Assembly (NCBI GenBank): GCA_040389125.1
Contig: JAZKAN010000001.1
Span: 111,398 to 175,397 of the forward strand
DNA from: Patescibacteria group bacterium
Lineage (GTDB): Bacteria; Patescibacteriota; Minisyncoccia; Phycocordibacterales; DATDWN01
Direction of reading: 5' to 3'
Length of the DNA: 64,000 nt
This document shows, in pieces, positions 44,896-45,165 of this stretch. Each line of letters begins with the position of its first letter. Within the stretch, counting starts at the first letter, position 1. The position numbers and the translations under genes were made by a program. The notes beneath the pieces are model-generated. The model had not been told where the DNA came from. It ran no database searches and saw only the letters and a program-made list of their open reading frames with translations.

Positions 44896-45127
44896 AGACC
44901 TTGTTTCTGATCTCTTTCAGATCTTGGAGTTTCTTCTTGCGCTCAAGACTGAGAGTCTTGTTTTTCTGCAATCGAATCTCTTTTAGTTGATAATCGATAT
45001 CGACAACGTCTCCTATGGACAATCGATATTTTTCTGTGAGCCACTTACCTTCGAGGATTAAGGCTGGTATGCCATATCGTCTATAGGTAACTGCTCGAGT
45101 AGTTTTGAGATTTTTCATTGCTAGCAT
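44837..45127 (-). CDS. SymE/AbrB-fold (SpoVT-AbrB-like) protein
   Basis: YRRYGIPALILEGKWLTEKYRLSIGDVVDIDYQLKEIRL resembles the E. coli SymE core (IPAITLKGQWL...). The 3' end overlaps the next ORF by 59 nt. Confidence 0.72.
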   Translation of the reverse strand: MLAMKNLKTTRAVTYRRYGIPALILEGKWLTEKYRLSIGDVVDIDYQLKEIRLQKNKTLSLERKKKLQDLKEIRNKVYDNPAGNQEASQREGDEHR

Positions 45128-45165
45128 CTGCCGTTGTACATCGGCTGATCCCTATCGGGACAATG
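45116..45165 (-). repeat. Copy 2 of the 50-nt module shared with 12209-12258; covers the SymE-like start codon
   Basis: The plus strand reads cattgctagcatc-N18-gatccctatcgggacaatg. ATG at 45127-45125. Confidence 0.85.

Follow-up and report, generated by a model that had tools for sequence, protein, structure and literature searches.

Why does a single prophage carry the same 50-nucleotide (nt) module twice, once in the leader of its integrase gene and once across the start codon of an early gene some 33 kb away? The question is raised by a 64,000-nt stretch of DNA (hereafter, the window; positions 111,398 to 175,397 of contig JAZKAN010000001.1, assembly GCA_040389125.1) from a Patescibacteria group bacterium. 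An earlier note on the window had noticed the repeat and offered several possible meanings for it: an operator or RNA element common to the integrase and the early operon, a scar of module exchange, or direct repeats able to delete the DNA between them. Our analysis shows that the repeat is two copies of a ~50-nt three-way-junction RNA that is read on the minus strand and is widespread in prophages of the candidate phyla radiation (CPR; Patescibacteria). To our knowledge, almost nothing is known about the regulation of lysogeny in phages of these bacteria, whose members are mostly uncultured and in whose prophages most genes are "hypothetical."

Two copies of a three-way-junction RNA

The copy in the integrase leader (module I) and the copy at the early gene (module S; coordinates in Table 1) lie in the same orientation and read, on the plus strand, CATTGCTAGCATC-N18-GATCCCT(T/A)TCGGGACAATG. 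As had been noted, ungapped alignment gives 13/13 identity in the first block and 18/19 in the second; the intervening 18-nt spacer agrees at 4/18 positions. Because the 50-nt flanks on both sides match at only 7 to 14 of 50 positions, which is background, the repeat is a discrete unit with sharp edges. Block 2 at up to three mismatches occurs in the window only at these two sites (expectation, 0.00 from 100 shuffles), and a covariance model of the module likewise has only these two matches in the 64 kb. Folding of the minus strands gives a three-way junction common to both copies (-17.4 and -15.1 kcal/mol; z scores, -3.3 and -2.2), and the plus-strand folds of both are weaker. In module I, the parts are a stem P1 (CAUUG/CAAUG), hairpin 1 [(U)CCC-GAAA-GGG(A)], hairpin 2 (AUCC-GACC..GGUC-A-GGAU), and then the junction GCUAG. 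More generally, hairpin 2 has a conserved AUC/GAU base with a variable top, and the junction consensus is GCUAN; the 8 nt formed by the 3′ strand of the hairpin-2 base and the junction are here called block A. The spacer hairpin cores of the two window copies are GACC/GGUC (12 kb) versus GCCG/CGGC (45 kb), just the compensatory change from which a functional minus-strand RNA had been proposed, a proposal that the covariation among relatives bears out.

These relatives were collected with a degenerate pattern in which CATTG, CCC, GGGATC, GCTA, and CAATG were fixed and only the spacer, N, GAU, and the loop were free. The pattern matched 81 metagenome loci, 32 loci in GTDB representative genomes, and a few IMG/VR contigs; the motif is thus not private to this genome, having been found at more than 110 loci by the kind of search that the earlier note had proposed. 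With the exception of one short contig binned as Gammaproteobacteria, the matching taxa are all Patescibacteria (Saccharibacteria, Paceibacteria, Nomurabacteria, Taylorbacteria, and Parcubacteria). The prophage family also has members in Hainich groundwater data sets. The 93 distinct modules fall into only two contexts. In class I (~60 loci), the order is a TrpR-like gene, a phosphoribosyltransferase (PRTase)-like gene, ~245 nt, the module, 155 to 187 nt, and the integrase; the terminal AUG of the module opens open reading frames (ORFs) of 1 to 57 codons in relatives and the frame is not kept, in agreement with the earlier view that the 12-kb copy opens no real ORF. In class S, the order is ychF or GAPDH, an optional ORF of 121 amino acids (aa), the module, the early ORF, an 87-aa ORF, and AAA_24, and the terminal AUG is the start codon of the early ORF. 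The two-copy arrangement, with hairpins specific to each class, is kept in every prophage for which both ends were recovered. One subfamily of early genes (loci L165, L167, L168, L169, and L177) has instead a single hairpin (UUGCUUUUCCGAGAAGCAA) 6 to 22 nt before the AUG. Scans of IMG/VR with PRTase and integrase profiles returned neither these contigs nor those with the divergent leaders described below.

Evidence that the module acts as a sense-strand RNA comes from its pattern of variation. RNAalifold on a plain MAFFT alignment recovered hairpin 1 alone, with hairpin 2 out of register, and a covariance model and per-sequence folding were used. In the covariance-model alignment, all four inner pairs of hairpin 2 covary, with changes on both sides, and per-sequence folding yielded 82 different hairpin-2 inserts that contain 36 G·U pairs. 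The sense fold is more stable than the antisense fold in 78/92 modules. Together, the G·U pairs, which on the plus strand would become A·C mismatches, and the fold energies argue that the module acts as a minus-strand RNA. The hairpin-2 loops differ by class: GNRA belongs to class I modules, and GACG or xGUACA to those of class S. The search pattern left P1 no room to vary, but P1 does covary in leaders that were retrieved solely by their integrase protein (CGUUG/CAACG, CGCUG/CAGCG, CACUG/CAGUG, and GUCG/CGAC). Hairpin 1 (CCC-GNRA-GGG) is retained in 7/9 divergent leaders in which block A is entirely different.

The module matches no described RNA family in the searches made. Rfam 15 gave no match in the whole window at the gathering threshold, and at E ≤ 10 nothing in 11950-12420 or 45000-45700 overlapped either module or the terminator loop described below. 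Among GenBank phage records, there was no match to the integrase leader, and a literature search found no description of the element. Hammerhead, pistol, and twister ribozymes and small aptamers were considered as candidates and rejected, with no Rfam match for any of them and the hammerhead core absent by inspection.

A predicted terminator/antiterminator switch in the integrase leader

Module I stands within an integrase leader that is conserved in relatives and in which a promoter-like sequence, the module, several covarying hairpins, and a terminator-like hairpin follow one another in that order. The last has the general form AAAAGUCCAC-loop-GUGGRCUUUUU, and its stem is 94.5% paired, G·U pairs included, in the leader alignment. 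The loop of this hairpin (12048-12062), a key partner that was absent from the earlier note, is complementary to the 8-mer shared by the two modules: its motif N′UAGCAUC is the exact complement of the module 3′ segment GAUGCUAN. The 8-mer or its complement occurs exactly three times in the 64 kb, once in this loop (anti-A) and once as block A of each module.

The pairing of block A with the loop is maintained with great consistency. Over 55 distinct leaders, 99.8% of cells are paired, compared with 31 to 43% in controls with a slid partner, and the N/N′ pair is A-U in 26, G-C in 16, and C-G in 13 leaders and unpaired in none. The rare forms GACGCUA and AACGCUA are compensated in the loop by UAGCGUC and UAGCGUU, while the local AUC/GAU base of hairpin 2 is broken in the same leaders; it is thus the long-range pairing that is under constraint. 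The helix runs on through CAA/UUG and UGGACUUU/AAAGUCCA, and in the GACUUU/AAAGUC segment a change of GACU/AGUC to GACC/GGUC is seen in 6 leaders. Ten further, divergent leaders have the same A/anti-A design in unrelated sequences (for example, GAUGAGAG/CUCUCAUC, GAGACAA/UUGUCUC, GUACGAC/GUCGUAC, GAGGCAAA/UUUGCCUC, AGGAUGCGAC/GUCGCAUCCU, and GUCUGACC/GGUCAGAC).

The antiterminator helix predicted from this pairing has 19 bp in the window and a mean of 18.7 bp over the 55 leaders. By thermodynamic prediction, the antiterminator state has P1 in 0/55 leaders and a terminator of 0 bp, and the alternative state has a terminator of 10.9 bp; the energy gap between the two states averages 3.8 kcal/mol and is 2.1 kcal/mol in the window. 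The earlier note had seen the 12-kb copy sequestered in the long helix of the leader, and the predicted fold agrees with this. A further, closing helix between the 5′ end of the leader and the end of the U-tract covaries (CAACCGAA/UUCGGUUG, CAAUCGAA/UUCGAUUG, and CAAUCAAA/UUUGAUUG), is possible only in the read-through RNA, and lies 8 to 15 nt before the int AUG. The linker from sensor to terminator is ~130 nt long and is itself structured.

Because the ~19-bp helix excludes both the terminator and P1, the integrase leader has the mutually exclusive, covarying antiterminator and terminator helices of an attenuator. A terminator/antiterminator switch on the integrase gene, with the 3′ side of the module as the switching strand, is accordingly very probable. 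In such a switch, the module 3′ segment (block A, the P1 3′ strand, and GACUUU) would pair with the 5′ arm and loop of the terminator. A folded module would lead to termination and no integrase, and an opened module to read-through and integrase synthesis. The kinetics of folding might set the switch, or else recognition of the conserved CCC-GNRA-GGG hairpin and the junction by a protein or ligand; the conservation of that hairpin hints that an effector exists.

The early gene at module S

At the other end of the prophage, the terminal AUG of module S (45116-45118) lies inside P1 and is the conserved start codon of the first early ORF. The earlier note had derived both Met1 and Met4 of a longer reading frame from the module; of these, Met4 is the conserved start and Met1 is not conserved, being replaced by ACG in two relatives (L003 and L100). 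The early ORF has no Pfam match at E ≤ 10, an exact-protein look-up returned no record, and none of its 205 database relatives is named. The NCBIfam SymE model NF010128 gave weak matches from 10/35 homologues (best E value, 0.034), and an AlphaFold2 (AF2) model with a mean predicted local distance difference test (pLDDT) score of 69.7 gave AbrB, MazE, and Sso7c4 as top Foldseek entries, all nonsignificant (E ≥ 1). The label "SymE/AbrB-like" that the early ORF had been given is thus a hint only. The 121-aa ORF that may precede the module has its stop codon, where the ORF is present, 5 to 12 nt before it, and translation of this ORF could be coupled to the opening of P1. Upstream of the 121-aa ORF, a conserved segment (45557-45580; AAAAAGGTCGAAA(AA)TTATTA) may be the early promoter.

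Coupling of the two copies

The 48 class S loci searched have no complement of block A within -600 to +900 nt of the module; the complement is found in the integrase leader. In 15/16 phages, both copies have one and the same block A, though hairpin 2 always differs between them. One lineage has changed all three sites together (GACGCUAA in both copies and UUAGCGUC in the loop). In the single exception among the 16, N is G in module S and A in module I, and N′ in the loop is U, such that module S still pairs by G·U; the copies in this phage are 35 kb apart. At another locus (L135), the loop fits the S copy perfectly and the I copy imperfectly. In the window, the pairing with block A of module S would extend by CAA/UUG as far as the first base of the AUG.

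Among the meanings first offered for the repeat, the one favored by this evidence is a common RNA element that coregulates the integrase and the early operon. Coupling of the two at the RNA level, with the terminator loop pairing in trans with the early mRNA, is a step that we rate at slightly short of even. The anti-A loop, most simply as a terminated leader RNA of ~240 nt, would pair with block A and CAA of the early mRNA; with positions -12 to +1 covered, translation would be blocked. In that case, the leader would serve either as an immunity-type small RNA, with the loop free, or as integrase mRNA, with the loop masked, and variants of block A would define specificity groups. Related prophages are found in tandem at one attachment (att) site in L025/L087 (IMGVR_UViG_3300025323_000513) and in L057. 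The block A letters of successive prophages are A then C in L025/L087, G then C in L057, and A in both in L068; differing letters in tandem prophages are compatible with heteroimmunity but do not prove it. The composite of a switch in cis and pairing of the integrase leader with the early mRNA in trans is our preferred reading, held with a confidence that only just exceeds even.

Several points weigh against it. The canonical set was collected by pattern, and the invariance of the fixed letters is in part ascertainment. Coupling is not universal, as the early-gene subfamily with the single hairpin lacks the three-way junction. The 16 phage pairs behind the trans step are not phylogenetically independent, and the pairing amounts to only 8+3 bp. 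A scan of the prophage sense strand for duplexes with the loop was nondiscriminating: the two modules ranked third and fourth (-14.9 and -14.8 kcal/mol), and a site in a gene of the capsid region (33600-33640, minus strand) gave a stronger predicted duplex of 14 bp at -18.3 kcal/mol, which is probably due to chance. RNA-RNA pairing alone does not account for the strong conservation of hairpin 1. Finally, we know of no validation of intrinsic termination in CPR bacteria, and the switch is predicted from sequence and folding.

A more specific version, which we put forward tentatively, is that the integrase leader is a bifunctional RNA with two states, the terminated form being an immunity small RNA and the read-through form an integrase mRNA in which the loop is masked by its own copy of the target. 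If this were true, the exposed loop of the terminated leader would silence the first early gene of its own phage and of any superinfecting phage with the same block A. Variants of block A (N as A, G, or C; GAC; and the divergent versions) would be heteroimmunity groups, which would explain the different letters in tandem prophages. Integration would also rewire the circuit, since the second target, until then 2 kb downstream of the antisense segment, would come to lie 33 kb upstream of it.

Prophage setting and other features

The modules belong to a prophage of ~35 kb (~10.73 to 45.70 kb), in which the genes around both copies are all on the minus strand. It is integrated at the 3′ end of ychF, which is duplicated at the two junctions, and is flanked on the left by host genes for LeuRS and two membrane proteins and on the right by ychF and ABC-transporter genes. 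Both modules are internal to the prophage, module I by 1.5 kb and module S by 0.5 kb from the nearer junction. When the map is closed into a circle, int and attP lie between them, as the earlier note had anticipated; contigs L025/L087, L057, and L068, in which an early region with module S follows within ~2 kb after int, show this bracketing directly. In relatives L004, L007, and L068, the 3′ end of GAPDH takes the place of the ychF 3′ end as the integration site. The coordinates of the main features are collected in Table 1.

Table 1 Features associated with the two modules, in window coordinates
Feature	Position	Strand	Evidence or remark
attL side, phage-borne copy of the ychF 3′ end (..DGGVIEFKI*)	10721..10755	-	
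Tyrosine integrase, gene predicted to be governed by the leader	11106..12023	-	Pfam Phage_integrase, 8.7e-26
Integrase leader RNA, predicted start to int AUG	12024..12275	-	Minimum free energy -92.2 vs -58.6 kcal/mol shuffled, z -6.8
Closing helix, 3′ arm (UUCAGUUG)	12032..12039	-	Overlaps the end of the U-tract
Terminator-like hairpin (AAAAGUCCAC-[loop CUUUGACUAGCAUCAG region]-GUGGGCUUUU)	12038..12072	-	Ends ~15 nt before int AUG
Anti-A (CUAGCAUC) in terminator loop	12050..12057	-	Exact complement of block A
Antiterminator helix, 3′ strand (AAAGUCCACUUUGACUAGCAUC), predicted	12050..12071	-	Uses up the terminator 5′ arm
Antiterminator helix, 5′ strand (GAUGCUAGCAAUGGACUUU), predicted	12203..12221	-	Uses up the P1 3′ strand
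Module I, integrase-leader copy	12209..12258	-	Covariance model 58.6 bits, fold, context
Block A (GAUGCUAG) of module I	12214..12221	-	3′ strand of hairpin-2 base plus junction
Closing helix, 5′ arm (CAACUGAA)	12267..12274	-	At leader 5′ end
Inverted repeat CACTACA..TGTAGTG	12276..12295	.	Encloses the -10 hexamer; arms covary between phages
Promoter-like TTGACA-17-TAGGAT heading the leader	12282..12310	-	10/12 positions match a consensus-type promoter; kept in relatives; CPR promoters little studied
Intrinsic-terminator-like hairpin closing the upstream TrpR-like/PRTase-like unit	12398..12426	-	
First early ORF, 93 aa from the conserved AUG	44837..45118	-	
Module S, early-gene copy	45116..45165	-	Covariance model 63.4 bits; same junction, different hairpin 2 (GCCG..CGGC)
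Block A (GAUGCUAG) of module S	45121..45128	-	Same as in module I; 3′ end 5 nt upstream of the start codon
121-aa ORF, optional, between early-promoter-like segment and module S	45173..45538	-	Stop 7 nt before the module
attR side, true host ychF 3′ end (..DGDVIEFRI*)	45685..45717	-	

Upstream of the integrase leader, 12451-13862 holds a weak PRTase-like gene and a Trp_repressor-family gene (Pfam), the latter conserved 1.3 kb upstream of module I. The arms of the inverted repeat at 12276-12295 change symmetrically between phages (CACTAT/ATAGTG, CACTCT/AGAGTG, and CACTCC/GGAGTG), and no second copy of the repeat is present within the window; it is a probable phage-specific operator and might perhaps serve the conserved TrpR-like protein. 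Replication genes of the prophage were recognized by Pfam as AAA_24 and Phage_rep_O.

Some other features of the window were observed in passing. The gap between int and attL contains a lysine- and glycine-rich ORF of 42 aa (10933-11061, minus strand; MNKAAQQLGKKGG...KKRKKKGDK) with a promoter-like TTGCTATAAT of its own and, between this ORF and attL, a conserved hairpin-forming segment (10808-10864, minus strand; GCUCGCCUACUAAGGCC..GGGCUUAGUAGACGGGC) that may be an att arm or another RNA; both have counterparts in L057. A low-GC block (15429-22739) encodes a PD-(D/E)XK/Cas4-like nuclease (Pfam), a 762-aa ORF, and further large ORFs, and it also holds two plus-strand ORFs (18665-20498); its composition and position suggest a cargo island for defense or restriction-modification. 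Glycine-rich repeats with a 9-nt period (CCACCNCCN, plus strand) occupy 24359-25143 of a 374-aa ORF (24271-25395), the product of which looks like a collagen-like tail-fiber protein. In the host flank, beside the ABC-transporter genes, 49071-53502 contains four tandem paralogous genes of ~360 to 375 aa with repeated 5′ ends at a spacing of ~1.1 kb (repeat family D3).

Alternative explanations

The alternative that survives best, though we consider it unlikely, is a sensor shared by both copies without any cross-talk between RNAs. Here, the junction would be an aptamer-like platform for one factor, be it a phage or host protein or a small ligand, and binding would stabilize P1, allowing the terminator to form in the integrase leader and hiding the start codon at the early gene. 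The copies would respond in parallel, and block A would be the same in both because the factor reads it. One fold with two expression platforms (a terminator, and a start codon within P1) is a classic layout of riboswitches and protein-dependent attenuators, the two leader states are nearly iso-energetic, and the retention of hairpin 1 in most leaders with a different block A suggests that something reads that hairpin. Yet about ten versions of block A are known, always complementary to the loop, and a factor that reads block A would have had to coevolve with it repeatedly. The lone discordant phage has G versus U, which suits RNA pairing. Nor is there an evident ligand, a match to an Rfam aptamer, or an RNA-binding protein identified in the conserved neighborhood.

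Far less probable is processive antitermination of the kind that depends on nut sites in lambda or put sites in HK022, by which each copy would modify the passing RNA polymerase and downstream terminators would be ignored in the int unit and the early operon. Lambda nutL/nutR and HK022 putL/putR are pairs of similar RNA hairpin modules near the starts of transcription units that differ by compensatory changes. The CPR phages likewise have two similar modules each, oriented with transcription and each just downstream of a promoter-like region, and hairpin 1 resembles a GNRA hairpin of the boxB type. However, the module covaries with the terminator itself, and local structural competition with this one terminator accounts for the integrase copy without requiring that the polymerase be modified. 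A start codon falls within module S, neither a boxA/boxB or put consensus nor an Rfam match is present, and no N-like or Q-like gene was seen.

Very improbable, too, is a SymR-like cis antisense RNA, whose plus-strand transcript would run across the beginning of the SymE-like gene; the 12-kb copy would then be a second antitoxin gene. Escherichia coli SymR overlaps the ribosome-binding site and start codon of symE (PMC4147584), and there are the weak NF010128 hints for the early ORF. Our preferred reading shares with that system an RNA that would block translation initiation on a gene that is possibly SymE/AbrB-like. It differs in that the proposed regulator is encoded in trans, in sense orientation, and at another locus, and homology of the early ORF to SymE is weakly supported. 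The G·U pairs and fold energies favor the sense strand, a search around the two copies gave no promoter or terminator on the plus strand, and a cis antisense RNA imposes no such conservation of sequence and structure.

Equally little probability remains for a DNA operator, in which the palindrome TGCTAGCA, as the earlier note had suggested, or the inverted repeat CATTG..CAATG would be bound by a TrpR-like or AbrB-like protein at both promoters. The 8-bp palindrome is indeed in both window copies, and there is the conserved Trp_repressor-family gene upstream of module I. The palindrome is not conserved, however: relatives have TGCTAACA, TGCTACCA, or CGCTAACA, usually TGCTAACA or TGCTACCA (GCTAAC or GCTACC in most), and N varies in step with its RNA partner. 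Within one phage, the two copies have different variable hairpins, which therefore cannot be the site of one protein. The G·U pairs are strand specific, and the promoter is upstream of the module and not covered by it; the inverted repeat at 12276-12295 is a better operator candidate. A recombination substrate or relic (an att-like site, direct repeats deleting the 33 kb between them, or a module-exchange scar) is the least credible of all: the repeats are direct and 32.9 kb apart and one adjoins the tyrosine integrase, but the true junctions lie in the duplicated ychF 3′ end with both modules inside the prophage, the integrase is outside the 12259-45115 interval, an unrelated 18-nt spacer with class-specific loops interrupts the repeat, and the two-copy arrangement is stably conserved.

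Relation to known immunity RNAs and attenuators

The closest parallels to the proposed pairing of the integrase leader with the early mRNA are the c4 RNA of phages P1 and P7 (immI) and the CI RNA of P4 (IsrK-C4 type). The repeated boxes of these systems are a and b in P1/P7 and seqA, seqB, and seqC in P4. As there, the CPR-phage leader contains an antisense segment that is complementary to two direct-repeat targets, one on each side (seqA and seqC in P4); the circular order is block A of module I, the anti-A loop, and block A of module S. The downstream target is at the translation start of the first gene that is proposed to be silenced, pairing is coupled to transcription termination, and the antisense segment and its targets vary in concert, as in P1/P7 heteroimmunity. 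The placement of an antisense segment between two repeated targets is described for P1/P7 c4 and P4 CI (PMC8198154; PMC4825925; PMC3632133).

The differences are also considerable. There is no similarity to the Rfam C4 model (RF01695), even at E ≤ 10, and RNase P processing is not indicated for the CPR-phage leader. The targets are embedded in a conserved three-way junction, and pairing with the upstream target prevents termination instead of causing it. Because int and attP lie between the antisense segment and the second target, integration separates the two by 33 kb. The hosts, moreover, are CPR bacteria and not Proteobacteria. That a terminated leader can act as a small RNA is documented elsewhere, for example for SreA/SreB of Listeria and StxS of Stx phages (PMC4825925; PMC7547250).

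In its cis part, the integrase leader resembles attenuators and riboswitches. It has a structured 5′ domain in which the P1 3′ strand is the switching sequence, its antiterminator and intrinsic terminator are mutually exclusive and near iso-energetic, and the same sensor fold is reused with a translational platform in module S. Unlike in typical members of these groups, the ~130-nt linker is long and structured and the 3′ strand of the antiterminator includes the terminator loop; no Rfam riboswitch matches it.

Implications

The module represents an RNA family that is unannotated and absent from Rfam; its loci, more than 110 in number, are distributed among Saccharibacteria, Paceibacteria, Nomurabacteria, and Taylorbacteria. 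Its covariation is unusually clean, and its probable mechanism, a terminator/antiterminator switch on an integrase gene, is readable. For the annotation of these phages, the module marks both ends of a prophage family and corrects the start codon of the early gene. As a compact natural RNA switch, it is amenable to study in vitro without cultivation of the host. For the biology of CPR phages, it yields a testable hypothesis, namely, that integration and early gene expression are linked by an RNA-based coupling that may extend to immunity.

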